A stretch of 64,000 nt of DNA from Vairimorpha necatrix (taxonomy: Eukaryota), in NCBI GenBank assembly GCA_036630325.1, contig CP142731.1, positions 372,001 to 436,000 of the forward strand, read 5' to 3'. Under the pieces are notes generated by a model, which made no database searches, was not told the origin of the DNA, and saw only the letters and a list, made by a program, of their open reading frames with translations. The position numbers and the translations under genes are program-made. The number at the start of each line of letters is the position of its first letter. Position 1 is the stretch's first letter. This document shows, piece by piece, positions 4,864-61,973 of the stretch.

Positions 4864-4912
4864 TGTCTTTATTTATCATAATGGGGGATAGAAATTATAC
4901 AAATATATCACA
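4864..4912 (-). repeat. 3' LTR of copy 1 (49 bp)
   Basis: Direct repeat of 8019-8067 with TG...CA ends, abutting the polypurine tract. Confidence 0.9.
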
Positions 4913-4933
4913 TCCCCCTCAAGACGGGTAGTC

Positions 4934-7900
4934 TCATCCAATTTTCACATCTACCCCAAGCATACTCATCAGGTCATAATGTCTCTTCTTCACAAGCCTA
5001 CCATTACTAAGTTTTACAATATAAGAATCTTTTCCACACTTTTCAACAATTCCCCCTGTATCCACAAATCTTCCTTTTTCATACTTATTACCACCTGCCA
5101 AATTTTCTCGTTTAGCTATTCTTACCATTTGACTTTTACTAAATTTTTCAATCTTTCCTTTTCCAAACCTATTACAATATTTCCCTATAGGCTATTTTCA
5201 AGCATTGCATCTCCAGTTTTATCTTCAGTCGCTTCTATTGGTGTACATTTTATTCCTGTATGATAGCTCTGATTAATATCGATACTTATATAAACTTTAC
5301 CTTCAAAAGTTTGCGCTTCCGACTTAAAATATTTTCTCTCAGTTTCTATAACACGCTCTACTCTACCGTTACTTCTATGCGCTTCTATGATTATTGTTGA
5401 AGTATTATATCCAGATCTCTACAAATTTTTATAAATTCCCGCCAATAAACTCTTTCTCGTTATCTGTAATATTTCTTTCGGTTTCTTCCCTTGCTCACAT
5501 AATCTTTTCAAAAATCCAATAACATTATTACTTGACTTGTTATTTATAACTACTCCTCATACTCTTCGTGTAAAATAATCGATAGCAACTAAAACATATT
5601 TCTTCTCATTTCTAAAGTCTATCAAATCTAATGCAACCTTCTCTAGGTATCTCGACGTATTACAAATTCACAACCACCCATATTTTTTCAGTTATATATC
5701 TGGCATTTCTGACACTGTTTTATAACCTCGTTTATTTCTTTCTTTACTCCTGGCCAATAGTATTCTTCTCTCATTGCATAATAAACACTTGTCATGCATC
5801 TGTGGCCTATTTTTTCATGATATTCTTGGATTAATCGTCTCCTTATATTCTCTGGTGAATCTTCAACTTTACGTCCTGAGTCAAATTGCCAATATTGCTT
5901 TCCATTCTCGGAAGAAACATGTGCTTTCCATTTACCTTCTGTTTGCTTAAGTGTTCGCTCTTTATTTTTCATTTCTTTAATATCCTCTTCCATATTTATT
6001 CGACTCAACGCATCTGCTACCACCATCTCATCAGGTTTTTTATATTCCACGATAAAATCATATTCCTGTATCTTCTCGATTAAGCGATTTATTTTGTTAT
6101 TATTAAAAAACGGTTTATTTCTTATCTCCACCAGTGCTTTGTGGTCCGTTTTTATCTTGAATTTTCTACCTCTTAACTCGTATTTAAATTTATCAATGCC
6201 CCAATATATCGCAAGCATTTCCTTTTCTGATATACCATATCTTACTTCTGTCGGTGTTAGCTTTTTAGATGCCCATTGTATAGCAACTTATTCTCCATTC
6301 TCATTCTTCTGAAGTAACACCGCACCCAATCTCAAATTGCTAGCGTCTGTTCTTAGTATGAACTCCTTATTATAGTCCGGTAATCTTAGTCTTCCCACAT
6401 TTCTTAACACATTTTTGTATTTCAGTAAATTCCTTTTCCATCTCTTTCGTAAATTTCCACGAATTGCTATTTTTCTTCAAACTATCTGTCATTTTCAACG
6501 TCAACCCGGCATAATCATTTATAAATGGTCTGAACCATCAAGTCAATCCTAGAAATCTCCTCAATTCCGTCAAAGTTTTTATATCTGGATACTCCAAGGC
6601 TTCATTTTTCTTTATTTCGTCGGCCATCATGTCTATTCCATTCAGCGTCACACCTAATAATTTTACTTCCGCTTGTCTAAACTGTATTTTCCCAATATTT
6701 AATTTCATTTTATTTCTCTTAATTCTTTCTATAACCTCTATTACTAATTCATCGTGTTTATGTTTATTGTTGGCATGTATTACTATATCGTCCATGTATA
6801 CCTCAACACCATTTCCTCGCAAATCTTCAAAAATCGTATTCATCGTTCTCTGTAGTATCTGTGGGGAATTTTTGTATCCCATCACCATACATTTCCATTC
6901 GTAAACTTTTTTATTAAATTCAAACGCCGTCTTATGTTTATCTTTTTCTTCGATTTCAAAATGGTAAAATGCTTCTTTGCAATCACAACAGTAAATATTA
7001 TCGACCCTTGCGTAGCTCTTATTATTTCTCACATATTAGTTAGCTCATACGGGTCTTTCTCGGCCAAATCATTCAACCCTATAAAATTACTAACTACTCT
7101 TACTTCACCACTTGGTTTAAGTATCGCTCTTATTGGGTTTCGCCATTCCGATGACGATCTTCTAATAAACTTTCTATTTTCTAAATCATTAATATATTCC
7201 TCTGTCTGTTTGATTAAAGCCTGTGGAATCGTCTGTCCCTTTCTGACTATCTTCTTACCCTCAGGAGTATCTATCTTACACTTCTCTAATGTACAATAAC
7301 TTATAACCTCATCTCCTTGTTTAAAAACTTCTTCATATTTCGCTTTAAGATCTTCCAACGTAAATGCCCTCTTCAGTAATCTTCTTTTCGTCTCTTTATT
7401 GCTCGCATATATTCTTTCTTTATGTCTTCTATCACTATTATTACATTCTTTTAAATAACTCGTTTTGTCTTTCCACTTGGTTTATATTCTTTATTATCAT
7501 TACTGCTACTACAAATTTGGTTTTCGTCTAAATTTAAGTACTTATTAAAATTTTTGTAATTTTTCTGACTATTGTTCCTTCCTACATAACAGTTCCTAGC
7601 CATATGGCCGAATTTCCCACAATTAAAACAATTCCTATTTCTTCTTATTTCTTGTACTGTATTCCTCAAAACTAAATCTTTCTCTTGCATTTCTTTTCTC
7701 ACAATTTCTCTGACATTCTCGGCTATAGCCTCCATAAGTTCTCTCCTATTTTCTTCTTCTTTTTTAGTTTTTTCTTCTCTACACATTCCCTCCTCTAATT
7801 TCTAAATTATTATATAATATTCGTCCTCTTTACTAATTCTTTCTACCATGAAATTTTTTATTTCTTCACTTCCTTCCATAAATATTCTCTGTTTCCACAA

Positions 7901-8034
7901 ACTGGATTCTACTTCCTCCATCTCTAACCTATACATGATTCTTCTAACTTCCTTTAATAGCTTTTTGGCCTCTAGACCACAGTCCACACTTGTAAACTGA
8001 CGATTCGGTATAGCCCCATGTCTTTATTTATCAT
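4934..8034 (-). pseudogene. Fragmented gag-RT-RNaseH-integrase polyprotein of LTR copy 1
   Basis: ORFs 7802-7987, 7451-7786, 7029-7358, 6538-7032, 5688-6218 and 4934-5128 are collinear with the copy 2 protein; multiple frameshifts and stops. Confidence 0.9.
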
Positions 8035-8067
8035 AATAAGGGATAGAAATTATACAAATATATCACA
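8019..8067 (-). repeat. 5' LTR of copy 1 (49 bp), contains the gag ATG at 8034
   Basis: TGTGATATATTTGTATAATTTCTATCCCTTATTATGATAAATAAAGACA, followed directly by a TGG PBS. Confidence 0.9.
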
Positions 8068-8533
8068 TTTTATATAAATTCACACCGTTAAAAATTACAC
8101 ATAAATAATTGCAAAAATACACAAACATAAAATAAGTGAAAGTATATGGTTCTATATATAATATATTGATATAATCAACACATGCGATCACAATAATTAG
8201 TAAAAAAATCATTTTATATGCCCCTTAAGAATTCATATTATACTAAAATTTAAACAAAAAATGCGATATATGAAACATAGACTCTAGTTAGGGTCTTCGA
8301 AATTATATTAATTTTTTTGTAAAGCATTTTTTTTATATAATTAATTATAGAAAATCACATTGTAATAATTTTTTTAAATTATTAGGACATTTCGAACCTT
8401 ATGACATATAAATGTATTTTAAACAAACAAAATGCAATAATACATAGTTATTTTGATTATTTGACCATACTTTCGACTCTTCCTTTTCTTTGAATGGATT
8501 TTATGGAAAAGAATACATTTATAAAATATGATA

Positions 8534-8582
8534 TGTATTTAATTATCATAATTGGGGATCAAAAATATAAGAATATATAACA
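8534..8582 (-). repeat. 3' LTR of copy 2 (49 bp)
   Basis: Direct repeat of 11628-11676 with TG...CA ends, next to the PPT. Confidence 0.92.
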
Positions 8583-8599
8583 TCCCCCCTCCAAGACGG

Positions 8600-11500
8600 T
8601 TAGTCTCCTACATCACCATTAACCCCAAGCAGATTTTTCAAGTCATAATGTCTCTTTTTAACATATCGCCCATTAGATAGCTTCACAACATACGAGTCCC
8701 CAGGGCATATCACCATTATAATACCTTCGTCTAAAAACCTTCCCTTTTCATATTTATTACATCCTTTGATGTTTTCTTTCTTAGCTATCCTTATTCGTTG
8801 TCCTTCAATAAACCGCTCTCTATATCTTCTAACAAATCTTTTACTGTAGTCTCCTTCTGGTCCATTTAATATCATCACTTTTCCCGTATTGTCTTTTACC
8901 GCTTCATTGGGAGTACTTCTTATACCTTCATGGTAACTATTATTATAAATTTTAAAGCTTTCCATCACTATGTCTTCAAAACTCGCCGTCTCTTTACTCA
9001 TTTTCAATATTAGCTCTCTAAGCGTTCCTATAACTCTTTCAACTCTACCATTGCTTCTATGAGACTCGACACTCACCTTATTATGGGTAATATCCAATTT
9101 TCAACACAAATCCTTAAAGTCAACATTATCAAATTCCTTTCCATTATCCGTTATTATTTCCTTCGGCCTCCTGCCATTTCTACATAAGTTCTCAATAAAC
9201 TGGGCCACAGAGGATCTCTTCTTATCGTATAATACACATCCCCACGCTATCCTCGTATGGTAATCTATCGCAACTAATACATATTTGCCCTTATCTCTAA
9301 AATCATTTAAATCTAACGCTACTTTTTCTAAATACCTGCTTGTAGCAACAAAATCACATCCTCCAGACTTTTTTCTATTGTAAATTTGACACTCCTCGCA
9401 TCTTTTTATCATTTTCACTATATCTTCTTTTATTCCTGGCCAATAATAATCAAACTTCATGGCATAATACATGCTTCCTAGTCCTCTGTGTCCATGCTCT
9501 TCATGATAACGTCTCATAAGCTCATCTCTTTCTTTTATTTTAGGAATCAATGCTTTCCTCCCCGAATCAAAATTCCAGTATTCTTTACCGTCTATTGTCT
9601 AGACGTGCTTCAACCATTTACCTTCAATTTGACGCTCACTTCTTTTTTTTATCATTTCTTTTCTTGGATCAACCTCCTCGTGTATCCCACTCAAAGCATC
9701 CGCCACGACCATATGTTCTGGTTTCCTGTAATCTATTTGAAAGTCAAATTCTTGGATCTTCTCAATCCATCGATTAATTCTATTATTATTAAAACACGGC
9801 TTTCTTCTTATTTCAGCCAATGCTTTGTGATCCGTTTCTACTTTAAATTTTCGTCCTCTTAACTCATACTCAAATTTTTTTATTCCCCAATATATGGCAT
9901 ACATTTCCTTTTAACTTATACCATATCTAGTTTCCGTCGGGGTGAATTTCTTCGATGCCCATTGTACTGGCACCCACTCTTCTTTATCATTCTTCTGCAT
10001 GAGTACTGCGCCCATTCCTATATTGCTCGCGTCAGTTCTTAATAAAAATTCTTTTCATAGTTTACAATTTTCAACTTACTCATACTTCTTAACGTTTCCT
10101 TCATATTTTCGAACTCTTTATTTAAGTCATCAGTCCAATTCAATACTTTACTTTTACCTTTCAAACTTTCAGTCATATATAATGTCTTCTCCGCATAATT
10201 CTTAATAAATCCTCGAAACCATCCACTCAATCCTAAAAATCTTACTATGTCAGACACATTCTGCGGCGTTGGAAACTCTAGTGCTTGGTTTTTCTTGATT
10301 TCAGACGGCATCATATCATCCCCGTTTAGTGTAACTCCCAATAACTTGACTTCCTTTTGGCAATACTGAATTTCCTTTGAATTTATCCGCATATTATTCC
10401 GTTCTAACAATTTCATCGCTTCTACAAATAATTTATCATGTTCTTTTCTAGTCTTCGCATGAATCACTATATCATCCATGTATACTTCTATTTTACCACC
10501 CAAATGTTTTTCAAAAATCTTATTCATAATTCTCTGCATGATCTGAGGCGAGTTTTTAAACCCCATGACCATACTATTCCATTCATATACTATCTTATCA
10601 TACTCAAATGCAGTCTTATGCTTGTCTTGCTCTTCTATTTCGATTCCATAAAAAGCCTCCTTAAGGTCTATAACACTGAAAAACTTCGATCCTTGCGTGT
10701 TCCTTATGATATCCCTAATGTTCACTAATTCATAAAGTTCTTTCTCCACTAAATCATTTAATGCCATGAGATTGCTAACCAGTCTTATACTTCCATCTGG
10801 CTTAATTAAAGCTTTAATCAAATTTCTCCATTCCGACGTCGATCTTCTTATGACATTCCTTGTCTCTAACCTCTGAATATATTTTCTCAGCTCTTCTTTA
10901 TGCGCTTGTGGCACCTGCTGACCTTTCCTTACAACTTTCTTACCTTCTTCAGTTCTGATTCTGCATTTTTCAATTTTACAATATCTTATTTTCTCTTCTT
11001 CGTTGTCTATAACGTTCCTAAACCTCTTTCTCATGTCTTCTAATGTTAGACCGTTCTTTTCTTCCTCATCATAACATCTTTTATTTCTTGTCTTCCATTC
11101 TTGTTTCTTTTGTCTTTTAGCATCCCATGTGTTCCTATAAGTCCATTCACCACAGCTACTGCTACCTTCTTCTTTAATACTCTCACATTCGTCTTTATTC
11201 TTAACATTTCTATATCTATAATAACACATCTGACTCTTATGTCCCATTCTTGAACAATTATAACATCTCATTGTTCTTCTCTTCTCAAATATTCTTTCCT
11301 CTCTACTAATATTTCTAATCTCCTCTGCCACCATCTTTGTGACCTCCTCAATCATCCGTAATCTCATATCCTTTTCCTCCTGTACTTTAACCAATTCCTC
11401 TAATTTGGTTTTCATAACTTTCCAATGATCTCCAATCTTAATATTCTTAACCATAAATTCTTTCAACTCATCAGTTCTAAGATCAAAAATCTCCTTCTTT

Positions 11501-11643
11501 ACATTTTTCTCAAAATCATAATCAGACAATACTAATCCATAAACAATCCTCTTAAACTCTTCTAATAACCTTCTGGCCTCTTGACCACAGCCAACACTTG
11601 TTAACTCACGATTCGGTATCGCCCCCATGTATTTATTTATCAT
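8600..11643 (-). pseudogene. gag(CCHC)-RT-RNaseH-integrase polyprotein of LTR copy 2, with a few disruptions
   Basis: 10039-11643: CYNCSRMGHKSQMC, IDLKEAF, YMDD. 9599-9904: RNase H (ETDHKAL). 9101-9550: HHCC, ALD, TDNGKEF. 8600-9097: SNGRVER. Confidence 0.93.
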
Positions 11644-11676
11644 AATTGGGGATCAAAAATATAAGAATATATAACA
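11628..11676 (-). repeat. 5' LTR of copy 2 (49 bp), contains CCCC motif, gag ATG (11643) and AATAAA
   Basis: TGTTATATATTCTTATATTTTTGATCCCCAATTATGATAAATAAATACA. Confidence 0.92.
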
Positions 11677-11825
11677 TGATATATACCTAACATCAGTCAA
11701 ATTCAAGGGGTAAAGACTTATAAAAATATTATATTGATTAGATTTTTGCTAAAGGTTAATTTGAACGCAAAAAATAAACAATTACAAACATGATGTCGCT
11801 CAAAATTTTTAATATTGTTTTTTTT

Positions 11826-12957
11826 GGTTAAATTGCGATGTTACCCCCCCCCCACCCCTAAAAAAATAAAAAAAAGGGGAAAAAATAAAAAAAGGGGAAA
11901 AAATAAAAAAAAGGGAAAAAAAATTTATTCAATTAATTCAAAATCAAATTCGGGGGCTAAATCGTAATTTAAAAATGATATATTATCAATCTCAAAAAGC
12001 ATAACATTCTTTCAAGTAGTGATTCTCTATAAATTAACTTAAAACGAGCTATATAAAGTTTTCGAATGAGATTCATCAAGAACCATGGCTTGTTCCTTCT
12101 TTGCGCAATTCCCTTTTAATTACAGACCACATTCCCTCAATTGTTTGGGTGTGGGCGCCTGTTGTTGGATTTACAAACTTTTGGCTATGATTTACAGTTA
12201 AATGTAAATAGTTATAACCCGGAATAGTTCCGAAAACCCTATATAACCTCGCCAACAATCAGTAATAATTGTAAAACCGGGGGCGATTTTTCGTTTTATT
12301 AAATCGACAAGAGTATTTCTTGGTCGATTTTCAACAATTTCGAAAAAAAAAGAATTGCTGTCTCCTAGTACAACCCCACCAACGGCCCAAACTTGGTATT
12401 GAAGGATTCTACCGTTATGGTTTTTACTTTTAACAAGCAATGTCTCGTCTATTTCAACTACGCAATTTAAACCTCCTATGGTTTTGTTTTGAAGGTAGTT
12501 GAAGTAGGATGAGAATACAGCGTTATTAAAACGTGTAAACCAGCGAGATACGGTACTACTATCTATATCCAATTCGATAGTAGCCGAAACATTGCTTACA
12601 CCTTTAACCCATTCAAACAGCAAAATTAAAAGATCTTCGATATCTAATCTAGAACTTTTAAAAATGCTTTCTTTGTAAATGTTACCTTTGTTTGAGCATT
12701 TTCTCCCATTTCGTCGTAAGTAACAACGATATTTGTCCAAATTATTTCTAATTTTGGTCATGTGTGTCATGCACTTATTGCACATTGGTACAAAAATATA
12801 TTTTTTTCAAGAAGAAATAAAAATAATTCCTCATTTTTATATATTAATTTTCTAAAATTTTTATGTTCATTTTAGGGGCATAATTTTTTCCCCTTTTTTT
12901 ATTTTTTCCCCTTTTTTTTATTTTTTTAGGGGTGGGGGGTAACATCGCAATTTAACC
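11826..12957 (-). mobile_element. Merlin (IS1016/IS1595-like) DNA transposon, frameshifted transposase
   Basis: TIR GGTTAAATTGCGATGTTACCCCC... with internal ~19-bp tandem units; 9-bp TSD GTTTTTTTT. Motifs VVEIDET, IITDCWRGY, HTQTIEGMW. CCC-preceded ATG at 12870. Confidence 0.95.
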
Positions 12958-13060: not shown

Positions 13061-15343
13061 TTAAACATTGTATTTTATCATCTCTTTTTCTTTCTGTTTC
13101 ACTAATTTATAGTTTTTGTTAGAAAATTTCCTTACGACACAAGCCATACTCGCTGCCAAAACTATTATTAGTATAATCAATAATGATATAATCAATCCGC
13201 AATAAATATTGTAAGAAAGTTCTTTTGACATGGTATCAAGATGAAAAAACTGACTTATATTAAAAGGAACATCATCTAAAGTTGTGGTATTCATAATATC
13301 ATGATTGATAGTAGTATAGGCATTAGTTGTATTATATGTATCAGTACTAGTGATAATTGGCTGCATTTCTTCTGAAAAATTACTAATAGATTTAAGATCA
13401 GAATTATCTGTGCTATATTCAGTAGCCATAGCAATAGGACTATTGGTAGTAGTTATCATAACTTCTGAAGGTTTATTAAAATTAATAGTATCAGAAACAT
13501 TGGCATCCTTAGAAAAACTATCAGAATAATTATAGCCCGTATTATTTTTTAAATTATTAAAAGTATTTTCAGAAGTAGAGCTATTAGTCGGCATATTATT
13601 ATTAATAAAGGTCATAATAGTAGGGCTATTGATGGTAGTAGTCATAATACTGATTCGATCAGTGATAGTATTAAAAGTAGAGCCAATAGTAGCAATATTA
13701 CCACTAGTAGCATAAGAACTGTTTGTGGTTTGAGAAATAATATCAATATCATTAGTATCAAAATTGTTAGAGGGGGTATTTATATTAGTAGTACTATATT
13801 CATTAGTTGTTACGTGTTTATAACTATTAGGAGTGGATACAACTTCGGCCACATTAGATTTTGTAGCAGCATTATTGAATGTAAGAATTTTAGTAGTTGT
13901 TACAATTTCAGGACTTTTCGAAGAGGGTATAACTGCAGGACTATTAGCAATTGTATTTTCATTGTCAATACTAGAAATATTCATAGTTTCTACAACTTTG
14001 GAACCATTATAAATCGATATATCATCGGGTATTTCAGTAATTGCAGCGGTATTATTAATGCTAGGAATATAAGTAGTGGTAGTTAGGTAATTAGGACTAT
14101 CAGAAGTGGAGATATCTTCAGGCACACTAGTAATTATATCGGCATTTTTGATGTTGGGAATATTAGTTATTGTTATAATTTCAGGACTATCAGAAGTGGA
14201 GATATCTTCAGGCACACTAGTAATTATATCGGCATTTTTGATGTTAGGAATATTAGTAGTAGTATTATAAATAGGACTCTTAAAAATTGCAGCGAAGCCT
14301 TCTAAATCTTTTGCAAGCTCAGTGGTGTTAAAAGTAGTGGTATTATTAGTCTTAGACATCATAATACCAGAACTATTTGTAGAACCTATCATTTCATATG
14401 TATCATTAGTTGTAGGCTTCATAACATCATATGCATTAATTTCGGAGCTACTGGTGGTATGAATCATAATATCCTGGTCTTTAGCACCAGAGATATTATC
14501 TAGGTCATTTGCCACAGTAGTTATCACTATATTTCTTTCCGTAGGTGTAGTCATATTACTGATCTTTTTAACAGTAAAAGGTGTTTTTATACTATTAGAA
14601 GAAACATCAGATTTTGAATCGTAAATTATGACAATAGAACTATTATTAGTTGTTACTCTCATTTTATCAGAATAAAAATTTATATCAATGCATTTATCAG
14701 ATGATAAAAACTCTTTGTTCTCTTGTAAAGTTTTGTTAAAATTTTTAATGTTTTTTCTTTGACATTTTCGATAATGTTCTAAAAGCTTATCGCACTTCCT
14801 ATAATAGACTGATGGTATTTTATCGCTATCATCATATTTTAAACATAAATTTTTGTTAATAATTTTTCGGATATCGTCTTTTTGAAATAACGATTTAGAA
14901 ATAGATTTCTTATGGCATAAATTTAGCGACCTGAAATTCTCCAATGTCATATTAATCATCTGATCAATAAATGTACTTTCTGCTTTGCTTAATTTTGATG
15001 TTGTATTCGGTATATCATTTGTACTAAATTTTTTTTTAATTTTAATTAGATAAACTTTTTGTAAATGTTGTTTTCTTATATTAAAATTTTTTAATAAGTT
15101 ATTATTTTTTAAGATTAAAATGAAAGACTTATTACTAATCAACGTCTGCCATACAAACCTTCCAAAAATTTCAACAGCTTCCATTGAAAGGTTGGTTTCT
15201 TTCACATTGTTATCTAATATGTTGCAATATTCATCTTTACTAATATTTTGGATATCATTTAACAAACTTGTCGTGTCGTGGCTTGTTGTTATTACAACAG
15301 TAATTAAATTTAACAACTTTGAATAAGAAAATAACGACCTCAT
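13061..15343 (-). CDS. Mucin-like S/T/N-rich type I membrane protein (760 aa) with 30-aa internal repeats
   Basis: Hydrophobic N-terminus, long Thr/Ser-rich region, C-terminal TM helix (GLIISLLIILIIVLAASMACVV) then a basic tail; CCCC motif before ATG. Confidence 0.85.
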   Translation of the reverse strand: MRSLFSYSKLLNLITVVITTSHDTTSLLNDIQNISKDEYCNILDNNVKETNLSMEAVEIFGRFVWQTLISNKSFILILKNNNLLKNFNIRKQHLQKVYLIKIKKKFSTNDIPNTTSKLSKAESTFIDQMINMTLENFRSLNLCHKKSISKSLFQKDDIRKIINKNLCLKYDDSDKIPSVYYRKCDKLLEHYRKCQRKNIKNFNKTLQENKEFLSSDKCIDINFYSDKMRVTTNNSSIVIIYDSKSDVSSNSIKTPFTVKKISNMTTPTERNIVITTVANDLDNISGAKDQDIMIHTTSSSEINAYDVMKPTTNDTYEMIGSTNSSGIMMSKTNNTTTFNTTELAKDLEGFAAIFKSPIYNTTTNIPNIKNADIITSVPEDISTSDSPEIITITNIPNIKNADIITSVPEDISTSDSPNYLTTTTYIPSINNTAAITEIPDDISIYNGSKVVETMNISSIDNENTIANSPAVIPSSKSPEIVTTTKILTFNNAATKSNVAEVVSTPNSYKHVTTNEYSTTNINTPSNNFDTNDIDIISQTTNSSYATSGNIATIGSTFNTITDRISIMTTTINSPTIMTFINNNMPTNSSTSENTFNNLKNNTGYNYSDSFSKDANVSDTINFNKPSEVMITTTNSPIAMATEYSTDNSDLKSISNFSEEMQPIITSTDTYNTTNAYTTINHDIMNTTTLDDVPFNISQFFHLDTMSKELSYNIYCGLIISLLIILIIVLAASMACVVRKFSNKNYKLVKQKEKEMIKYNV

Positions 15344-19882: not shown

Positions 19883-20500
19883 TTATTTATTATGGATGTT
19901 TTTGTCGATCAAAGCATTTTGCAATATTTTGACACAATTACTCAAAGATTTGATGTGGTCATTTTGTTCGACAACATAGTTACAAACCTTTTGCAAGTCT
20001 TGTAGAGAGTTATGATCAAAATTATGGTTTTTTTCATCCTTTAACTCGTTAAAAAATCTTAAAAAATCTATACTATATTCTTTAACTTTCAAAATATATT
20101 CTTCAAATGTTTGTAAAAAGTTATATATTTCTTGTAAACTCTTTTGATCTTTAATCATAGAAATATTTTTTTTTTTCAATTTTTGTACAGTCTGGTTCAA
20201 ATACCATTTCCCTGCATCATTATACAGCTTAATTTTTAAACTTTTAATAATAGATGTCAAATCTGAACTAGATTTTTGTGTTGAAGAATCTTGTCTTTTT
20301 GATTTTAAATTTTTATAAGATTTGATTTTAAGAATAGATAAAGAATGATTGTTATTATAGTAAGTTAAATCTTTGATCAATATCAATACAAAAGATAAAT
20401 TGCAATTAAATTCATTAGAATCGTGATTTTCAATGGTTTTTCTTTCACATCTCACGTTACTTCTGTATACTCCTAAAGTTAGCAAATAAACCAAATTCAT
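19883..20500 (-). CDS. Hypothetical protein, probably secreted (205 aa)
   Basis: Open ORF, CCCC immediately before ATG, short hydrophobic N-terminus. Confidence 0.7.
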   Translation of the reverse strand: MNLVYLLTLGVYRSNVRCERKTIENHDSNEFNCNLSFVLILIKDLTYYNNNHSLSILKIKSYKNLKSKRQDSSTQKSSSDLTSIIKSLKIKLYNDAGKWYLNQTVQKLKKKNISMIKDQKSLQEIYNFLQTFEEYILKVKEYSIDFLRFFNELKDEKNHNFDHNSLQDLQKVCNYVVEQNDHIKSLSNCVKILQNALIDKNIHNK

Positions 20501-25146: not shown

Positions 25147-27459
25147 ATGAATTTCGTTAAAATATTTGCTCTATTATTATTTATACAGTCATATATTAGA
25201 GTATATGACAAAGAAGAAATTAATAAGAAAATTTATGAGGAACTTAAGAAAATGATGATGAAAAAAATAGAAAAAAAAGAATATGTTGAATTTAATAGCA
25301 GCGAAGAATTTATTAAAGTACATATTTATCTTAATGAAGAAAATCACATTTTAAACATAAATATTGAGAATATCAAAACGCCTGAAGCCAATGCAAGCAT
25401 AGAGAAATTTGAATTTCATTATGATGATAAATCCATTAATGAAATTACTGAATATATTGAATTTTATGTAGAACAATATTCCCAAAAAAAAAATAATGAT
25501 TCTATAATTTTGGTCTACGATAGTGAATGTTTTGAAGCTTGTCCTATCTTGAAAGATGTCATAAAACATATTAAAAGTATTAACGAAAATAGAAAAATAA
25601 ATAATAAATGTTGGGGAGAATATTACAATTACATATGTGCAACAGATTGTTATCTGCTTAAAATGTTAATGGGCATAAAATGCGGTATTGTTTTGAACGA
25701 ATATGATATAAGTATATTTGATTTTCATTTTTATTACATTTCTAAATATAATGACAGATGCATAAGATTTTACATCAAGAAAGGAGAGTTATGTTATTTA
25801 TTTGAATTAAATATTGAGGAACTTAATATTGACGCACTAATATCTTTGAATGATACAAACATAAAGCTAAATAGTGATTTTGATGGGATTATTATAAATA
25901 AATTATTGATATTATGTAAACTATCTGATATGGATGATATTGAGAAATACGAGACAACAACAGAATATATTTTTACACCTAATATGATCAATATCCCCGA
26001 ATTTAACTTCAAACTTGTTATGGAATCAAATAAAATAAGCTTTAATCTTTCTTCTGGTACATACGAATATTTCATTATGAATAAATCAATTAATGAGGAT
26101 TGTAAATTATACATCGAAGAAAAAAAATTTCTTGATGTGAAATTTTTTTTTGAAAACACACCTATAACCCAGAACGTATTAGATGATTTTAAGGCAGTCG
26201 AATTATTGTTCAGAATATTTAGAAATAATAATAAAATAGAATTTCTGATAACTAAAATATTTAAAAATAAGGGTTCTGGCTTAAATTTAATATGCGCACA
26301 TTTACTGTTGTCTATGGAGATAATAAATCAAAATGACCATAATTTATTGTTAAGAGGCAATGAAGAATCAGAAAATGAAGTTATATCAAGGTGTATGGAT
26401 ATTATAAAGAAAAATTATTTAATAATTAATGGATTACAGTTCTATTTATTTAAAAAATGTTTACTCATGGAAGCAGCAAAATTTGTATGCGAAAATAATG
26501 TAGAAGATGATTTGGTATATAAAACTTTGAAAGAAATATATCATCTTAATGAAAAAAAAAATGTTACAAACATAATTGACTTAAGTACTAAAAAAGAAGA
26601 TATATATTTTTTGAAAACAATACAAGAAGCAATACTTACTTATAAAGATCATATTAGATATTACAAATATTCAATTTTGTCACATTTGTGCAGAATAAGT
26701 TTTATGTTTATAGAAATGGATGATTTTTTTGGTAATGCATACGAGCAATATAAACATCAAAAAGATAAGTTTATTCATTTTTTAAAATTGGATAAAAATG
26801 AGGTTGATAAAAATACTAAAATTATAATGAATAATCTATCGAAAAATACAATGATAGAATATAAATATCAAGAGAAAAGAAAACAAAAAAAGAAAACCTT
26901 CCAAAAGCTTAAAGAAATATTCGATAAATATTTATTAGGCGAGGAATTAAGTAAAATTATAGAAAATTCTCAAAATTTAGATATTAAAAATATTTATATG
27001 GAAAAAATAAGGTCAAATTTAGAAAATAATTTGATAAGTGAAGGAATACAAAAAATTGAAGCTGCTTTTTATAATTATAAACTGATTAAAGAAGAAAAAT
27101 ATTTTGGACAAATATCTATTGAATTAAAAAAGCTAATGTTCTCGGTGAGCTTAAACGAAGAAGAAGTATTTGAATATAAAATTAAACAAGAAGATTGTTT
27201 TAAGAAAAAAATATATATTGTACTAAAAAATAAGACAATAGAAGCAGGAAAAACGGAACTGTTGAAAATTTTTAAAATTTTATTTAATAGTTTCTTTGAA
27301 AAAGATACAAGTAAAAGAGAGAAGAATGAAAAATACTTGGAAACTATAAAATTGGTTTTGAAGAGGCAACAATTAGAAGATTTTATAAATGAGGAACTTG
27401 GTTTAGATCTCCATAGCGAATTGGTAAAAGTACTCAAAATGTATGACCAAACTGAATAA
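25147..27459 (+). CDS. Hypothetical secreted protein (770 aa)
   Basis: Long ORF, CCC before ATG, signal-peptide-like MNFVKIFALLLFIQS; no family recognised. Confidence 0.85.
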   Translation: MNFVKIFALLLFIQSYIRVYDKEEINKKIYEELKKMMMKKIEKKEYVEFNSSEEFIKVHIYLNEENHILNINIENIKTPEANASIEKFEFHYDDKSINEITEYIEFYVEQYSQKKNNDSIILVYDSECFEACPILKDVIKHIKSINENRKINNKCWGEYYNYICATDCYLLKMLMGIKCGIVLNEYDISIFDFHFYYISKYNDRCIRFYIKKGELCYLFELNIEELNIDALISLNDTNIKLNSDFDGIIINKLLILCKLSDMDDIEKYETTTEYIFTPNMINIPEFNFKLVMESNKISFNLSSGTYEYFIMNKSINEDCKLYIEEKKFLDVKFFFENTPITQNVLDDFKAVELLFRIFRNNNKIEFLITKIFKNKGSGLNLICAHLLLSMEIINQNDHNLLLRGNEESENEVISRCMDIIKKNYLIINGLQFYLFKKCLLMEAAKFVCENNVEDDLVYKTLKEIYHLNEKKNVTNIIDLSTKKEDIYFLKTIQEAILTYKDHIRYYKYSILSHLCRISFMFIEMDDFFGNAYEQYKHQKDKFIHFLKLDKNEVDKNTKIIMNNLSKNTMIEYKYQEKRKQKKKTFQKLKEIFDKYLLGEELSKIIENSQNLDIKNIYMEKIRSNLENNLISEGIQKIEAAFYNYKLIKEEKYFGQISIELKKLMFSVSLNEEEVFEYKIKQEDCFKKKIYIVLKNKTIEAGKTELLKIFKILFNSFFEKDTSKREKNEKYLETIKLVLKRQQLEDFINEELGLDLHSELVKVLKMYDQTE

Positions 27460-34397: not shown

Positions 34398-35060
34398 TTA
34401 AAGTATAAAAGTTTGAACATATTTAGAAAACATAAGTTCGGCAGGTGATATGAATTTTAGTTCTTCTTCGGTGGTCTGTATAGATTTTCCGAGAAGTTTA
34501 TTAATCAAATTTTCTTCATATTGGATTTGTGAATCAAAAATGCAAGCTTCAATGAGTAATCTATTGTTAAGTATTATAAATTTGTCTCGTTCACTCAAAT
34601 TAAATAAAACATTTCCATCAACATTTTCCACGGAAAACAATAATAACTTTTTTAACCAATCATTTCCCGTTGATTTTTCTTGATTCTTTTTTAAAGGAGT
34701 TTCCGATTTTGTCAGTTTTAAATCAAGTAATCTATACTCTAACGCATTTTGATTTATAGAATTTCTTTGGTTTTTGAAAACAACAACACCACTTTCAAAT
34801 GTTTTATAATTTTTTAATATTGAATAAAAAGAAATATATAATAGACGCAATATTTCCTTATCAATATCTGGATTAAGTTTTTTTATTTTGTTGATACGTG
34901 ATGTAATATTTAATTCAGTTATTCGATCTGGATATATTTTTATTCTATTTTTTTTGCAACAAAATTTTATAAATTTAAAAATTAGATACAAACAAATAGC
35001 AACAAAACAAATCAAGCATGCATCTAAAATCAACTCTTTTGTCACTGACCCGATTTTCAT
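34398..35060 (-). CDS. Hypothetical protein with N-terminal TM anchor (220 aa), paralog of 40578-41243
   Basis: Intact ORF, CCCC before ATG, strong protein similarity to the paralog. Confidence 0.85.
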   Translation of the reverse strand: MKIGSVTKELILDACLICFVAICLYLIFKFIKFCCKKNRIKIYPDRITELNITSRINKIKKLNPDIDKEILRLLYISFYSILKNYKTFESGVVVFKNQRNSINQNALEYRLLDLKLTKSETPLKKNQEKSTGNDWLKKLLLFSVENVDGNVLFNLSERDKFIILNNRLLIEACIFDSQIQYEENLINKLLGKSIQTTEEELKFISPAELMFSKYVQTFIL

Positions 35061-39158: not shown

Positions 39159-39848
39159 ATGTTTTTTGGCTTAATAATAGTTTTGAAATGTAGTAATTTC
39201 CGCGATCTTAAAACGACAGAAAAAAGATGTAAACTTAAATTAAATATAATACCTGTCATAGACAACCAATCGTCAATTGAAAAATATGTTTATAATAATG
39301 CTGATGTCATTAAAAGATACAACGTATTTCTAAAAACACATTATTCCGATATATTGAAATTTTTACTATTCAATGAAAAGCTATCAAATTTGTTAAAAAG
39401 TGATAATGAATATAAAAATGATAATATTATTATTAATTTAAAAAACAATGTGAAACAATTGAGGAAGATATTGTTTAACGAATCAGATAGATGGTTCAAT
39501 TCTACTGATTTTAAAGATGTGAAGAGATATTTAAACAACATTGACGATTTGAAAATCAAAAAAAAAGAAGACCTGAAGTCAAATATGTTTATATACAAAT
39601 ATTTGTCTAAATATCAAAATTACGCTTATGAATTGTATCGACTGTGTGATAACACAAAACATTTGTGTGCCCAAATGTGTAAAAAATCTAAATATAAAAC
39701 ACATTTTGAGGCAATAATTTATTTATCTAATTTTGTAAAACGCGTTAAACCAAAAACTGTAACTTTAGATGATTTGGAAAAATATATCGATATCTTAATC
39801 TTTTTGGAAAACGAATATTTTTATAATTCCGCATTAGAGAATATGTGA
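39159..39848 (+). CDS. Hypothetical secreted protein (229 aa)
   Basis: CCCT before ATG, short hydrophobic N-terminus MFFGLIIVLKCS, pseudogene paralog at 32752. Confidence 0.8.
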   Translation: MFFGLIIVLKCSNFRDLKTTEKRCKLKLNIIPVIDNQSSIEKYVYNNADVIKRYNVFLKTHYSDILKFLLFNEKLSNLLKSDNEYKNDNIIINLKNNVKQLRKILFNESDRWFNSTDFKDVKRYLNNIDDLKIKKKEDLKSNMFIYKYLSKYQNYAYELYRLCDNTKHLCAQMCKKSKYKTHFEAIIYLSNFVKRVKPKTVTLDDLEKYIDILIFLENEYFYNSALENM

Positions 39849-40577: not shown

Positions 40578-41243
40578 CTATTTAAGTATAAAAGTTTGAA
40601 CATGTTTAGAAAACATAAGTTCGGCAGGAGATATAAATTTTAGTTCTTCATCGGTAGTCTGTATGGATTTTTCAAGAAGTTTACCAATCAAATTTTCTTC
40701 ATATTGGATTTGTGAATCAAAAATGCAAGCTTCTATAAGATATCTATTGTTGAGTATTAAAAATTTGTCTCGTTCACTCAAATGAAATAAAACGTTTCCA
40801 TCAACTTTTTCCACAGAAAATAATAGTAACTTTTTGAACCAATCATTTTCCGTAATTTTTTCCTGATCAATTAAAAAAGGAGTTTCCGATTTTGCCGGTT
40901 TCAAATCAAGTAATGTAAACTCTAATGGAGTTTGGTCTTCAGAATTTCTTTTGGTTTTGTAAACAACTACACCACTCTCAAATGTTTTATAATTTAATAA
41001 TATCGAATAAAAAGAAATGTAAAGTAGACGTAATGTTTCTTTATCAATATCTGGATTGTGTTTTTTCATTTTGTTGATATGTGATGTAATATCTTTTTTA
41101 CATATTGAATCTATATTTATCTCAATTGTATTTTTTCGGCAACATGATCTTATAATTTTAAAAATTAAATATAAAACAACAGTGCCTAAACAAGTTAGGC
41201 CCGCTTCTACGAACAACTTTTTTTTTTCTGTATCGATTTTCAT
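40578..41243 (-). CDS. Hypothetical protein with N-terminal TM anchor (221 aa), paralog of 34398-35060
   Basis: Intact ORF, CCC before ATG. Confidence 0.85.
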   Translation of the reverse strand: MKIDTEKKKLFVEAGLTCLGTVVLYLIFKIIRSCCRKNTIEINIDSICKKDITSHINKMKKHNPDIDKETLRLLYISFYSILLNYKTFESGVVVYKTKRNSEDQTPLEFTLLDLKPAKSETPFLIDQEKITENDWFKKLLLFSVEKVDGNVLFHLSERDKFLILNNRYLIEACIFDSQIQYEENLIGKLLEKSIQTTDEELKFISPAELMFSKHVQTFILK

Positions 41244-49829: not shown

Positions 49830-52530
49830 ATAGTTAACTAAGTTATATTATTAAAAGTTTTAGATATAGAGATAGTTATTCATATTATAAAAGCAATACA
49901 TGATTAATGCAATTCTTATCAAATTTTTTTTCATGTCGGCATACATAGGATATTTAGTACACATTTAAGAGTTCTTTACTTTTTAAGATTAAGCACTATT
50001 AAGTGCAGAGTGATTTTATAACTAATAGGTAAACATTGCTTAAAGTTTTGCTGCTGAGCTGCGCATCAAACTTATGCAAAAACATTAATTTGCATGCATA
50101 CACAATGTGCGATATCAACCGAGTGAAGTTTTCATTAAAATCTCTTCTTTATATCTATTGTCTAGTGCATCAATAGCATTACCGCAAAAAGCTAAATTTT
50201 ACCTAAATATAGTATTAATCGGAAAAAATGCAATTATAATTTAACAAAAAGGATTGAATAAAATTTTATTGTTTTAGTTCCAATATTTTATAAATTTAAT
50301 AAAAAAAGATGCAGCTTATGAAGCCGAATTTTAACTAAGGTCAAACTGATAATTCTAAGTTTAAATGCGTTACTAATATAATAAATGATGCAGTGCTAAC
50401 TATTATATATAGGGGGTTTATTAAATATATGTGCATGTTTTTCAAAAAATCGGTAAATATATTTGGCGCTTGTCTAAATTAAACTTCTGTATTGTTTTTA
50501 ATCAATGCTGTTTAAGCTGCAGATTATGAATTGTTTTTTTTTTTTTTTTTTGTGAAATACACACCGGAGATAATGTATTCTAACAAAAATTCTGTTAAAA
50601 TTTTGTAAAAATAGTTTTGATTAATATTTTTGTGTTTTTAAACTCAAATGTAATATCCAAATCATCTTGATTATCAAAATAAACATAAAACATTTAATCG
50701 ACAAATAAAATTAAGTCTATACGTCACTAATTGACGCTTTATTGCACTATAGATTTGATATTACTGTCTAACAACACGTTTTTTAATAGTATATATATAA
50801 ATCTTGTAAAATAATAAGTATTGGAAGTGCAGATGATAGTACGGTATAAGAACAGAATCATTTATATGTTTACTCGTGTATATTGTATTTTGCAATAAAA
50901 GACGGGATGATTAAAACATAAATTAAAATGCGGATTTCAGCTTTTGCCGTCTTTGAGACTAAAATGTTATCATTTTAAAGCAATAAAAAAGAATATAATA
51001 CCAACCTCGAATAATTATTTTGATGGTGTGAAATAAATCTAAGAAAAGATGTAAAAGCGGGGAATTCCTACAATTTAAATCTGAATAGCTAAAGCACTCT
51101 AATAATTATGTCTGTATTATAACTCTATATTCTTACTGATCATGAAATTTAGAATTGAAAGTATGCCAGGCCACAAAATTATTTAAATCAAATAAAACCC
51201 AATCTGTCTTTATTGAGTAATAAAATATTTTTCAGTGCAGTCGAATCTATTAATGAAGAACATTGGGATGTAGTCATACAAGTTTAAATTTTTACGAAGG
51301 CGTTTGTCCACTTAACAAATAAAAAGTCCAAATAGCATAATAATGTTGTATTTTATCTATAAAAGAGTGTACGAACATACTCAGTTTTTATAAATTAACA
51401 TTGCAATTGTAGAAAAAATTTTAAATCATCACCTCATGTCAGAAAAAATCTTAAAATTCTCGTTACAGGTAGTAAAATATTGAGATTTTGTTGTTTTTTA
51501 TAAGACTTTAAAGAAATTATAATTTTTTGTTTAGACCCAATATTCCTTTCTCTTACATTTCGATCTATATATCTTCATATAAAAACTAGTTAAAATACTC
51601 AAAAAATAACTCGATTTCTTATTCTTACATTTTCAATGTATCGTATGGCCTAAAATACATGTTTAAGCCAATTATTTATATTCTATAAGTTGGCATTATC
51701 ATCTTAAAGATCAAGTCTTTAGTATATTTAAATTCATTTCTAAGACTTTTTTTAAGCATCTTCACAAGTGATGATATTCTCCTCGTGTTTTAGCTATTCT
51801 ATTATGATATCATGGTAGGTGTTTATTTCATTGTCTCAGTACTAATAAAATTATTATATCAAAATTAATATACTTTATTGAGCAAACATAAAGACTTAGT
51901 TAAATAAAGTTTACAGCAAGATGTAAAATTATATATAACACGAATTTACAATGATCGAAAGAATTTTATTTTAAAATGCTGTAAATGAATCTGGAATTTT
52001 GGTATTATTGAAATGTAAGTGATAGTGCAATATACTCTAATATACTAGAAATAAAATACAAATATAATTTTTCGCCATAAAAATTTTTAAAAGAATTTTT
52101 GAAAATAATATTTTATTACATATTAAATGCAACAGTCTAATTTGAATCCGCTAGAATGTATCAAAGATCGCCTTAAGCAGTCTCAGATTTTCCCAGGCAT
52201 ACCCCCAAAAGATAATGACAAAGAACATGATCTTCTCTTCTCTTACGTATGTATAATAAATTAAGGCAGTAGTAATCACAAAAAATCCATTCGTCTTTCT
52301 GCAAATTGACGCATTTGATTGGCTACTAAAACTATTTAATTTATAAGTAAAATGAAGCCTACGTATCAATTCTGACGAAGTCTTAAAGGTATGTCCCACA
52401 AAATCTGTTTCTTACTTTTATTAATATTCGATCACATATTAAAAATGTTAATTTTTATTCATAATTTCCCCCTACTCTGTAAATCCTTAAAATATTTTCC
52501 CCATATAATAGTATATTCTTCTATTTTTAT

Positions 52531-52612
52531 GGCAGTGTGGCCGAGTGGTTAAGGCGGTTGATTCGAAATTAATTAAGTTTATCTTGCGCTGGTTCGAATC
52601 CAGCCACTGTCG
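52531..52612 (+). tRNA. tRNA-Ser(CGA)
   Basis: GGCAGTG/CACTGTC acceptor stem, TGGCCGAGTGG A-box, anticodon loop TTCGAAA, long variable arm, GGTTCGAATCC, downstream T-run. Confidence 0.93.
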
Positions 52613-52704
52613 ATTTTTTATATTTATAAAAAAGTATAAATTTAAGTTTTATTTTATCTATAAAGCACATTCTTCTTAATTATCGAACTTTAGTTCGATT
52701 TTGT

Positions 52705-54388: not shown

Positions 54389-55412
54389 GGCTAATGTCGG
54401 CTTTAGGAGAAAATTTTCGATATAGGGTTTTTTTGTTTTTTTTTGCCCCTTTTTTTCAAAAATGGAGGAGAAAAAATGTGGAGGAAGAAACAAAAATAAA
54501 AATTAAAACAATAAATTTATTAATGCTTCAAACACAGAACTAGAAGAATTTCTTTGAAGCATATACCCGAATAAATAAAGTTTCGCGCTCCGAACTGATC
54601 TATTTCTATTTGGTATAGAATTTTTTAAAGATCGCCAATTACCTTCTATGGTATTGGTATGAACTCCAGTAAGTGGGTCTCTAAAGTGTAGAGAATGATT
54701 TACCATTAGATGTTGGTTAAATATTAAGCCTAAATTATGGTAGGCTCTCCACATATCGCTATAAATTATACTATTTCTGTCTACATATTTTAACAAAAGA
54801 TTAGTTAGCGTTATTTGGTCTCTTTTCTTAATATATATAAATATAATTCGGCGGTGTATGGTACGTTCGACCATACCAAAACACCAGAAACCTTTCACAA
54901 TTCTACCTCTATTATTCTTATTCTTGCCAATCTTCGTCTCATCGATTTCCACTACTGTGTTTTCACCGCCTATAACGCCAATACTAGATAAATATTTTTT
55001 ATAAATATCCAATTCTTTTAACTTTTTTAGTATAAATGACACAGATTCCGCTGAACAACCCAAAATTTGACAAATAGATTTTCGAGGATATCCTAGAATC
55101 CACATATTAAGTATTTGTAATACTGTAATATGGTTAAGTCTAGAATCTTGGAATAAAGTACCTTTCCATATTGAAACTGTTTTTTTACAAGTACTCCATT
55201 TACACTTCAAGATAAGTTTTTGTTTATTCTTTATTATCATCTGACCATCACATAATTCACAATATTTTATTTTATTTTTGGTTATTAATGCATTATAAAT
55301 GTTTTCTAATTGCTCTCTTGTTTGAATTTTCTCCTCCATTTTTGAAAAAAAGGGGCAAAAAAAAACAAAAAAACCCTATATCGAAAATTTTCTCCTAAAG
55401 CCGACATTAGCC
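54389..55412 (-). mobile_element. Intact, probably young Merlin transposon (1024 bp, ~86-bp TIRs, 8-bp TSD CAAAATTG)
   Basis: TIRs GGCTAATGTCGGCTTTAGGAG... match by eye; TSD at 54381-54388 and 55413-55420; uninterrupted transposase. Confidence 0.97.
54503..55339 (-). CDS. Merlin/IS1595-family DDE transposase (278 aa)
   Basis: N-terminal CxxC...CxxxxC zinc ribbon, VVEIDET, IYSDMWRAY, HTNTIEGNW. Confidence 0.93.
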   Translation of the reverse strand: MEEKIQTREQLENIYNALITKNKIKYCELCDGQMIIKNKQKLILKCKWSTCKKTVSIWKGTLFQDSRLNHITVLQILNMWILGYPRKSICQILGCSAESVSFILKKLKELDIYKKYLSSIGVIGGENTVVEIDETKIGKNKNNRGRIVKGFWCFGMVERTIHRRIIFIYIKKRDQITLTNLLLKYVDRNSIIYSDMWRAYHNLGLIFNQHLMVNHSLHFRDPLTGVHTNTIEGNWRSLKNSIPNRNRSVRSAKLYLFGYMLQRNSSSSVFEALINLLF

Positions 55413-61520: not shown

Positions 61521-61973
61521 TTATTTTTTTAATTTAAGTTTACTACTAAATATCTCATAATCCCATACTAAATACACACCATCCTCCACATTGATCTTTA
61601 TACTCGACTCCATTGCCTTTTTAAACTCGTCACTTATTAAATACACAAATTCCATATCTTCCACTACAATATTCTCAAGTATGAATACTGTCTCATAAGC
61701 CAGTAAGTACAGTAAAGTATTATCAGAGCAAATATTCCCACCAAATATCTTCTTAATAATGTCCCAGTACACGGGGAAAGACAAAGAAGAAGAGTTTAAT
61801 TTACTGATTAAAATGTCATAAATCACTTTTGAGACTAATTTACTCATATTATAAGTAAACTTGTCTAGAAAAAGACTGTATTTAGTAGGAGGAAGATAAG
61901 ATATCTCCTGACTTGAGTCTTTTAGAGATGGTATAGCAAGAAATGAGAGAAGAAATAATTGAATTAGGCACAT
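61521..61973 (-). CDS. Hypothetical secreted protein (150 aa)
   Basis: CCCCT-ATG, signal-peptide-like MCLIQLFLLSFLAIPS. Confidence 0.78.
   Translation of the reverse strand: MCLIQLFLLSFLAIPSLKDSSQEISYLPPTKYSLFLDKFTYNMSKLVSKVIYDILISKLNSSSLSFPVYWDIIKKIFGGNICSDNTLLYLLAYETVFILENIVVEDMEFVYLISDEFKKAMESSIKINVEDGVYLVWDYEIFSSKLKLKK

Follow-up and report, generated by a model that had tools for sequence, protein, structure and literature searches.

The window analysed here, a 64-kb stretch (64,000 nucleotides) of Vairimorpha necatrix contig CP142731.1 (positions 372,001 to 436,000), carries on its minus strand a complete long terminal repeat (LTR) element of only 3143 bp (8534-11676, hereafter E2), together with a sister element (4864-8067, hereafter E1). 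With a probability of about 0.6, we take E1 and E2 to be old, broken copies of a microsporidia-specific branch of Ty3/gypsy-type elements that has been stripped to ~3.1 kb. The family consists of an LTR of 38-49 bp, one open reading frame (ORF) of ~1015 aa and a second LTR; the ORF encodes a Gag-like part of ~130 aa with one CCHC knuckle, an unconserved charged linker of 30-80 aa, reverse transcriptase (RT), RNase H and a DDE integrase. The protease, which is treated as a core and defining gene of LTR retrotransposons and retroviruses, is missing from this list, and we regard both the anatomy and the family-wide loss of the protease as very probable.

Results

Search for a protease

We looked for a retropepsin with Pfam, by profile-profile comparison and with a custom hidden Markov model (HMM), each with controls. 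No retropepsin Pfam family is listed for the top 30 longer matches to the 534-aa ORF of E2 (P0059-P0088; 948-1188 aa, 22 of the 30 on contigs of 3.0-3.8 kb, one from Enteropsectra breve). The first match that has one is P0089, at 30% identity, and in this control Asp_protease_2 occupies residues 264-344, between the knuckle and the RT. When the 29 members of the family alignment (A1) were searched at E<=1, there was no retropepsin among the 25 families listed of the 61 matched, and the full Pfam lists of P0059, P0062, P0071 and P0313 do not contain one either.

A retropepsin profile, made from an alignment of 12 outgroup proteins, reached a probability of 0.03% against the N-terminal part of the family and of 0.8% against its full length, and at most 0.4% against P0059, P0062, P0071, P0086 and P0088 taken singly. 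As a positive control, the two halves of the retropepsin alignment were matched to each other at 99.5%, and the profile also detected the protease in outgroups that lack a precomputed protease family. The same profile found a retropepsin in P0087, from the nearest sister lineage, at residues 204-294 (DTGS ... LIGNE; E 6e-5), where three Pfam retropepsin models match weakly too. A search with this region of P0087 returned only itself. The custom HMM, built from the same 12-protein alignment, recognised all 11 held-out proteins that bear a protease (E 3e-16 to 2e-3) and none of six family or near-family proteins (E >= 0.19); its best score was E 0.8 in the six frames of the window and E 2.3 in those of six related loci (L001-L006).

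The space left for such a domain is small. From the knuckle to the RT motif FC..EKC.I.T there are 50-99 aa (median 68; 27 of the 29 members have both motifs), of which ~20 residues form the conserved RT lead, while the remainder varies freely in length and sequence, with no invariant residue between knuckle and RT lead in the 29-member alignment. A retropepsin of ~100 aa therefore cannot hide in this gap. The D[ST]G motif is found nowhere in the 534-aa ORF of E2, and ahead of the RT it occurs in a single one of the 29 members, within a low-complexity run. Since P0087 has a protease whereas P0086 and P0088 have none, the loss occurred inside this radiation, once or twice. Judged from these sequences, the absence of a retropepsin is a clade-wide trait and not a one-off deletion.

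The family and its relatives

By name, close relatives of the 534-aa ORF in the protein search come from Vairimorpha necatrix, Nosema granulosis, V. apis and Pseudoloma. Members of the family are 34-67% identical to the query and come from several genera, and intact single-ORF members of ~1000-1040 aa are present in several microsporidia. The P0062 cluster, from Vairimorpha ceranae, comprises 31 members; of the 15 that are listed, 10 measure 1014-1019 aa. In the RT-RNase H tree (516 columns, 58 rows; P0085, P0098 and P0118 left out as the motif anchor missed them), 27 family rows stand on one side of a branch with an SH-aLRT support of 100, and are nested with P0086, P0087 and P0088 in a 30-row clade, again with a support of 100. 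The tree is unrooted, comes from a quick search, has several long outgroup branches and includes no copia or BEL reference; in it, the closest neighbours of the clade are polyproteins of the Ty3/gypsy type. A scan of viral contigs gave no relative of the family.

The Pfam order in the family is RVT_1, RT_RNaseH_2, RT_RNaseH, Integrase_H2C2 and rve. In 22 of the 29 members zf-CCHC matches at E<=1 (best 1.2e-5), preceded by a median of 133 aa (range 121-167); in the last 55 of these residues, about every second one is charged and Pro+Gly amount to 4%. The linker carries a basic cluster in 17 of 27 members. When the profile of the Gag-like part was compared by hhalign with the Gag regions of 17 relatives and outgroups, the best probabilities were only 15-17% (the N-termini of P0086 and P0088), and a sequence search of residues 1-215 against the PDB returned only zinc-knuckle matches to retroviral nucleocapsids (E 0.045-5), with no capsid or protease chain.

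Between E1 and E2, which are 66.5% identical across 2524 nt, the proportions of nonsynonymous (pN) and synonymous (pS) differences are 0.26 and 0.81 in the RT, 0.26 and 0.82 in the RNase H-integrase part, 0.39 and 0.68 in the Gag-like part and 0.49 and 0.90 in the linker. Only proportions are given, and no dN/dS, because synonymous sites are saturated (pS ~0.8). By these proportions, the RT-RNase H-integrase part is under purifying selection.

Both copies in the window are broken, E1 far more than E2, with many stops and frameshifts. E2 has four lesions, a frameshift that ends the 534-aa ORF and, in the frame where coding resumes for RNase H, H2C2 and DDE integrase, three in-frame stops. A public run, X1, the kind of which is not on record, contains 66% of the sampled words of this stretch. 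Its contigs are ~99% identical to E2 (9, 13 and 7 differences over 1086, 993 and 841 nt in records 2, 3 and 6), have sense codons at all three stop positions of E2 and show a one-base indel at 10050, the frameshift site, with the frame kept. The other 37 listed substitutions create no stop, and there are 97 further differences beyond those listed. Word depth in X1, which is not equivalent to copy number, is 15-20 over the element versus 1.4 in the flank. We take this to mean that E2-type sequence without the four lesions exists, probably in several copies, unless the lesions are errors in the assembly of the window. In the bins that cover the LTRs (8514-8627 and 11592-11705) the depth of X1 words rises to 84-97, versus 15-45 inside E2, which would fit solo LTRs or LTRs that several subfamilies have in common.

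Of the related loci, L003 has TG..CA LTRs of 39 bp, 3124 bp apart, with the target-site duplication TTATA, and L005 has a 38-bp 3' LTR, its ORF stopping inside the repeat. No LTR pair was found in the metagenome loci L001, L002 and L004 or in L006, a locus from a metagenome-assembled genome (MAG); these loci are rearranged or decayed. L001 (50-2578) and L002 (1092-3620) share an 843-aa frame that passes from the RNase H of a different retroelement stop-free into a family member, a nested or rearranged insertion at the junction of which no LTR was found.

The named members of the clade are all microsporidian, except for contigs filed in bacterial MAGs. The contigs L005 (a 911-aa ORF plus the 38-bp LTR, 37% GC) and L006, which carry this eukaryotic family, were assigned to MAGs of Clostridium sp. 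and Turicibacter sp., and most likely represent microsporidian contamination of gut-metagenome bins. Three protein matches, too, bear the names of bacterial MAGs (P0014, Clostridium sp.; P0029, Bacteroidales bacterium; P0035, Aeromonas sp.).

The initial annotation of this stretch had described a complete 3143-bp element with LTRs, primer-binding site, ORF, polypurine tract and a 5-bp duplication, and this description stands in all its parts (49-bp LTRs, TATCA, TGGGGGCGATACCGAATC and GGAGGGGGGA), save that it overlooked that the LTRs are only 49 bp long, which is itself unusual. Its reading of the ORF as a short Gag, a knuckle, a charged linker and the RT lead, with no D[ST]G, is borne out, as is the same layout in the sister element, where the order is again Gag(CCHC)-RT-RNase H-integrase. 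Its proposal of a streamlined lineage without a protease, instead of a one-off deletion, agrees with the 27-row clade, with the intact single-ORF copies that it had suggested looking for, and with three negative search methods that do find the protease in the sister P0087.

Terminal repeats and cis-acting sequences

The LTR of E2 is densely occupied: TATA words lie at positions 4-10 and 14-17, TTTTT at 18-22, CCCC at 26-29, ATG at 34-36 and AATAAA at 40-45. Counted from the ATG that opens the polyprotein frame, CCC thus lies at -8 and TATA near -30, and the motifs of the E1 LTR have the same layout. In the available portion of Cornman 2009, start sites of N. ceranae are described as having a T-run and then CCC within 15 nt upstream, with the CCC peak at -10 to -3 and a TATA peak near -27. 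From its sequence, then, the LTR reads as a miniature host-type promoter that also holds the first ATG and the AATAAA.

CCC is found at -15 to -3 from the ATG in 10 of the 17 window ORFs of at least 150 aa, usually following a T-run, versus 4.2% of random 15-mers. The ORFs that bear it include 13061-15343, 19883-20500, 25147-27459, 34398-35060, 39159-39848, 40578-41243, 61521-61973, 62309-63187 and others. The same CCC/T-run motif has been reported at start sites of N. ceranae and E. cuniculi.

At the junction of LTR and primer site (..CA/TGG..), the terminal A of the LTR and the TG of the primer site form a second in-frame Met codon. Read in this way, the polyprotein takes its first few residues from the LTR, and translation runs on through the primer site. 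Among the N-termini of the family (n=29), 17 have an upstream Met followed 3-9 residues on by M[AGT], 7 start with M[AG] and 5 show neither.

The window contains a tRNA-Ser(CGA) gene (52530-52613, plus strand), and the complement of its CCA-extended 3' end is TGGCGACAGTGGC; it is not complementary to the primer site of E2, and we rejected it as the primer of this element. Read from the terminal A of the LTR, TGGCGACAGTGGC translates as M-A-T-V-A, which is the N-terminus of P0079 (MATVAK..) and is seen in P0069 (..HMATVV..). Judging by this back-translation only, some subfamilies may prime with tRNA-Ser, with the primer site visible in the protein. Self-priming of the Tf1 type, between the LTR RNA and the primer site, was also rejected, with only 5-6 base pairs found by eye, and the predicted fold of the 5' 111 nt of the RNA is not significant (z -0.99).

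At the other end, a block of 23-25 nt before the 3' LTR is kept in E2, E1, L003 and L005, the proteins of which are only ~45-50% identical. The ORF stops within this block or immediately ahead of it, either at the polypurine tract or only a few bases away. In all four, the block before the polypurine tract (8583-8607 in E2) includes a small inverted repeat, AGAC ... GTCT, which could form a hairpin of 4-5 bp just upstream of the plus-strand primer.

Features of the window

The coordinates are collected in Table 1. The LTRs of E2 differ at 1 of 49 positions, and a 40-nt word of the LTR occurs exactly twice in the window versus 0 expected (100 shuffles). In the E2 protein, charged residues make up about half of the ~55 aa that lead up to the knuckle, a stretch in which Pro and Gly are scarce, and no Pfam capsid domain is detected in the Gag-like region. 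The knuckle is matched by zf-CCHC at E 0.016, below the curated cut-off, the linker has a basic cluster (KRQKK), and RVT_1 covers aa 281-439 (10327-10803; E 9.8e-29). The LTRs of E1 differ at 2 of 49 positions and its target duplication is imperfect (TAAAA versus AAATA).

Table 1. Positions of the features of E2 and of its sister element in the window
Feature	Position	Strand	Basis or remark
Target-site duplication TATCA, 5' side	11677-11681	-	Read directly; identical to 8529-8533
Target-site duplication TATCA, 3' side	8529-8533	-	Read directly
E2 5' LTR, 49 bp, TG..CA ends	11628-11676	-	Direct-repeat comparison
E2 3' LTR, 49 bp, TG..CA ends	8534-8582	-	Direct-repeat comparison
Primer-binding-site-like sequence of E2, TGGGGGCGATACCGAATC, TGG-led, directly after 5' LTR	11610-11627	-	Translated within the ORF
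First ATG of E2 polyprotein ORF, inside 5' LTR	11641-11643	-	Reading frame
534-aa ORF of E2	10039-11643	-	Open reading frame
Gag-like N-terminal region, aa 1-126	11266-11643	-	Position before the knuckle
CCHC zinc knuckle, C-X2-C-X4-H-X4-C, aa 127-140	11224-11265	-	Motif and Pfam zf-CCHC
Variable charged linker, aa 141-207, usual site of a protease	11023-11223	-	Unconserved in the 29-sequence alignment
Reverse transcriptase, including the conserved N-terminal lead L..L...F..V...I.FC..EKC.I.T	10039-11022	-	Pfam and alignment
Single-base frameshift lesion in a T-run, ends the 534-aa ORF	10041-10051	-	Frame comparison
RNase H region, with in-frame stops 9911-9913 and 9599-9601	9599-10038	-	Pfam and frames
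Integrase: H2C2 zinc domain (~9374-9517), DDE core (~9104-9304), C-terminal domain	8600-9598	-	Pfam and frames
In-frame stop in the E2 integrase; stop codon of the E2 ORF	9101-9103; 8600-8602	-	Frames
Conserved cis block GAGACTAACCGTCTTGGAGGGGGGA, polypurine tract at its end, abuts 3' LTR	8583-8607	-	Common to E2, E1, L003 and L005
Polypurine tract of E2, GGAGGGGGGA	8583-8592	-	Directly before 3' LTR
Sister element E1, 3204 bp	4864-8067	-	49-bp LTRs; Gag(CCHC)-RT-RNase H-integrase order as in E2

Besides E1 and E2, the window holds no further retroelement fragments. The rest consists of orphan ORFs, a protein kinase, two Merlin/IS1595-type transposase ORFs and the one tRNA-Ser. The first transposase ORF, directly beside E2 (12198-12785, minus strand), has a weak and partial ISXO2/IS1595-like (Merlin-type) domain (E 2e-4), and the second (54503-55339, minus strand) a clearer one (E 7e-16). 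Between 4001 and 12000, the GC content is 0.29-0.33 over E1 and E2 versus 0.23 upstream, and the GC skew of the plus strand is strongly negative over the two elements (-0.24 to -0.42), as their coding strand is purine-rich.

Discussion

We infer that the family to which E1 and E2 belong is autonomous and has been recently active. The working mode that we favour, tentatively and somewhat short of even odds, is that of an uncleaved polyprotein. The ~118-kDa product would stay in one piece, with its nucleic-acid-binding N-terminus fused to RT, RNase H and integrase, and would bind its own RNA in cis as a ribonucleoprotein, with no proteolytically matured Gag shell. The knuckle would act as a nucleic-acid chaperone, and the basic cluster of the linker may serve nuclear import. 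Transcription would start just after the CCC of the 5' LTR and end near the terminal CA of the 3' LTR, leaving a repeated R segment of ~10-20 nt for the first strand transfer. Priming by a tRNA, the strand transfers between LTRs and the integrase would all be retained. The broader view, that of an autonomous LTR lineage that dispenses with proteolytic maturation, and probably with a capsid shell, and works in a LINE-like manner through one cis-acting protein of ~118 kDa, is a possibility that we put forward with some doubt.

The initial annotation had offered two other ways of working besides an unprocessed polyprotein, a host protease and a protease supplied in trans; the second is weighed against here, and the data do not decide among the three. 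If a microsporidian protease of the host cleaved the polyprotein at its flexible linkers, maturation would simply be outsourced. A protease could plausibly act on the linker between knuckle and RT, which is long enough to be accessible, carries many charges and varies freely, and the element already uses host-type signals such as the promoter motif. However, the alignment shows no conserved cleavage-type site in the linker or at the borders of RT, RNase H and integrase, and we consider this explanation unlikely.

Still less likely, in our opinion, is a retropepsin borrowed in trans from protease-bearing Ty3/gypsy elements of the same genome. A sister lineage with a protease does exist (P0087), and the accessible part of Parisot 2014 (PMC4202319) counts more than one LTR family in each Nosema genome, with 3 for N. 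ceranae and 14 for N. bombycis. But the loss is old and clade-wide, spanning 34-67% identity and several genera, so that a compatible donor would have had to persist alongside the family everywhere. Moreover, neither the six frames of the window nor the related loci yielded a retropepsin, none of the microsporidian-named matches lists a protease family, the protease region of P0087 found no relatives, and no conserved cleavage motif is seen in the alignment.

It is very improbable that the ORF hides a protease, be it cryptic or of a non-retropepsin kind, between Gag and RT or in another part. At the level of sequence, which is what the searches covered, the interval, with its 50-99 aa including ~20 aa of RT lead, is conserved neither in sequence nor in length and has no invariant residue between the knuckle and the RT lead, the profile and HMM searches were negative with working controls, and the Pfam domains of RT, RNase H and integrase cover the rest of the ~1015 aa. 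We give equally little credit to the idea that deletion has left these elements as dead, non-autonomous relics: E1 and E2 are both broken, and the two LTRs of a copy differ at 1 position of 49 in E2 and at 2 in E1, but many intact ORFs of ~1015 aa exist in several species, pN is far below pS in RT and in RNase H-integrase, and the X1 contigs lack the lesions of E2.

Several points weigh against our interpretation of E1 and E2 as decayed members of a working lineage without a protease. Canonical Ty elements require their protease for transposition, and we know of no close precedent in this class for a working polyprotein that stays uncleaved. Both copies in the window are broken. The four lesions of E2 could be errors in the assembly of the window instead of decay, X1 may be the window's own sample, and its contigs could be collapsed paralogues. 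As only 25 of the 61 matched Pfam families are listed, a weak retropepsin match in a single member could hide among the others. The 3 LTR families of N. ceranae (PMC4202319, in its accessible part) leave room for a protease donor in the same genome. Finally, the section available of Williams 2008 (PMC2474625), citing Xu 2006, states that nearly all Ty3/gypsy elements of N. bombycis encode Gag, protease, RT, RNase H and integrase.

A clade with intact ORFs, no protease and LTRs of 38-49 bp greatly lowers the minimum that an LTR element must possess, and offers a natural system in which to ask if cleavage of Gag-Pol and a capsid shell are needed for reverse transcription and integration. It also presents a mobile element that tracks the compaction of its host genome, with the T-run/CCC start motif of the host put to use and the primer-binding site translated. 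If the broader view given above is right, the LTR life cycle can run with neither protease nor capsid, a cassette of 38-49 bp would combine the host-type promoter with the start codon, the poly(A) signal and the integrase end, and, in those parts of the literature that we could consult, no autonomous LTR retrotransposon would be smaller and no LTRs shorter. Standard LTR finders have a default minimum LTR of ~100 bp. LTRs of 38-49 bp would therefore be missed, and the elements are annotated as stray 'reverse transcriptase' or 'krab-a domain' genes, sometimes in bacterial MAGs; public annotations of the family indeed read 'reverse transcriptase', 'krab-a domain-containing protein' and 'Transposon Tf2-9 polyprotein'.

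Among known systems, retroelements that work without a protease are found in DIRS/Ngaro and in the LINEs, which operate as RNA-protein complexes rather than as matured capsids. DIRS elements have a tyrosine recombinase and different repeats, and LINEs use target-primed reverse transcription and have no LTRs, primer-binding site or integrase. We propose that the likeness of the family to them would lie in the working mode only and not in membership. A DIRS-like identity is ruled out by the DDE integrase (rve) and the H2C2 domain, found instead of a tyrosine recombinase, and an identity as non-autonomous TRIM, LARD or TR-GAG elements by the family's own RT, RNase H and integrase under purifying selection. 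The Tf1 element of S. pombe is similar in being a compact Ty3/gypsy element with a single Gag-Pol ORF; it differs in retaining a protease that it requires, in its longer LTRs, of a few hundred bp, and in its size of ~4.9 kb.

Compared with Ty3 of S. cerevisiae and the Metaviridae, the family shares the order LTR-primer site-ORF-polypurine tract-LTR, the tRNA-type primer site, the CCHC knuckle, the order RT-RNase H-integrase, the DDE integrase with H2C2 and the 5-bp target duplication. The features by which a Ty3/gypsy element is recognised are for the most part present: TG..CA repeats with a duplication of 4-6 bp (49 bp and TATCA in E2, 39 bp and TTATA in L003), a TGG-led primer-site-like sequence at the 5' LTR, its tRNA match being putative, with a polypurine tract at the 3' LTR, and RT and RNase H with the integrase last. 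The Gag part has its CCHC knuckle after 121-167 aa, with no Pfam capsid family and no hhalign match to an outgroup Gag. Unlike in Ty3 and the Metaviridae, Pfam, profile and HMM searches with controls find no retropepsin between Gag and RT, no capsid domain is detectable, and the LTR is partly coding and, at 38-49 nt as a whole, is not of canonical size; in the Metaviridae, U3 alone has 200-1200 nt and U5 75-250 nt, the LTRs are non-coding and the protease is a domain of pol (ICTV, PMC7879559).

The closest known systems are microsporidian. According to the available text of Parisot 2014 (PMC4202319), microsporidian Ty3/gypsy groups encode one polyprotein, not separate gag and pol, which is restated in the portion at hand of a 2026 genome paper. 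The present family has the same single gag-pol ORF and forms a clade confined to microsporidia. It resembles the Parisot groups and the Nbr elements of N. bombycis in host, in the Ty3/gypsy-type RT-RNase H-integrase and in the single polyprotein, and these are almost certainly the same or sister families. It is unlike the Nbr elements, as they are described in the accessible part of a secondary source (PMC2474625), in having no protease. The main text of Parisot 2014 never uses the word 'protease' and, in the part that was accessible, does not state how long the LTRs are. Our literature search gave no relevant report of protease-less LTR elements or of such microsporidian elements, with Xu 2006 and the Parisot supplements, which may hold part of this, outside its scope; in the excerpts that it covered, protease loss, LTRs of 38-49 bp and a start codon inside the LTR are not described.

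The shortest LTRs that this search found, in the accessible part of Gao 2012 (PMC3281118), are those of 76-90 bp in grasses, namely 85 bp in FRetro129 (SMART) and 76/90 bp in FRetro64. These elements are similar to the present family in their very short LTRs, TG..CA ends and 5-bp duplications. According to the same portion of that paper, they are related to Ty1/copia, and the element of 292 bp is non-coding and non-autonomous. Unlike them, the microsporidian family encodes its own RT and integrase between LTRs about half as long. It departs from the textbook class in two features, the protease and the LTR architecture, and carries the others.

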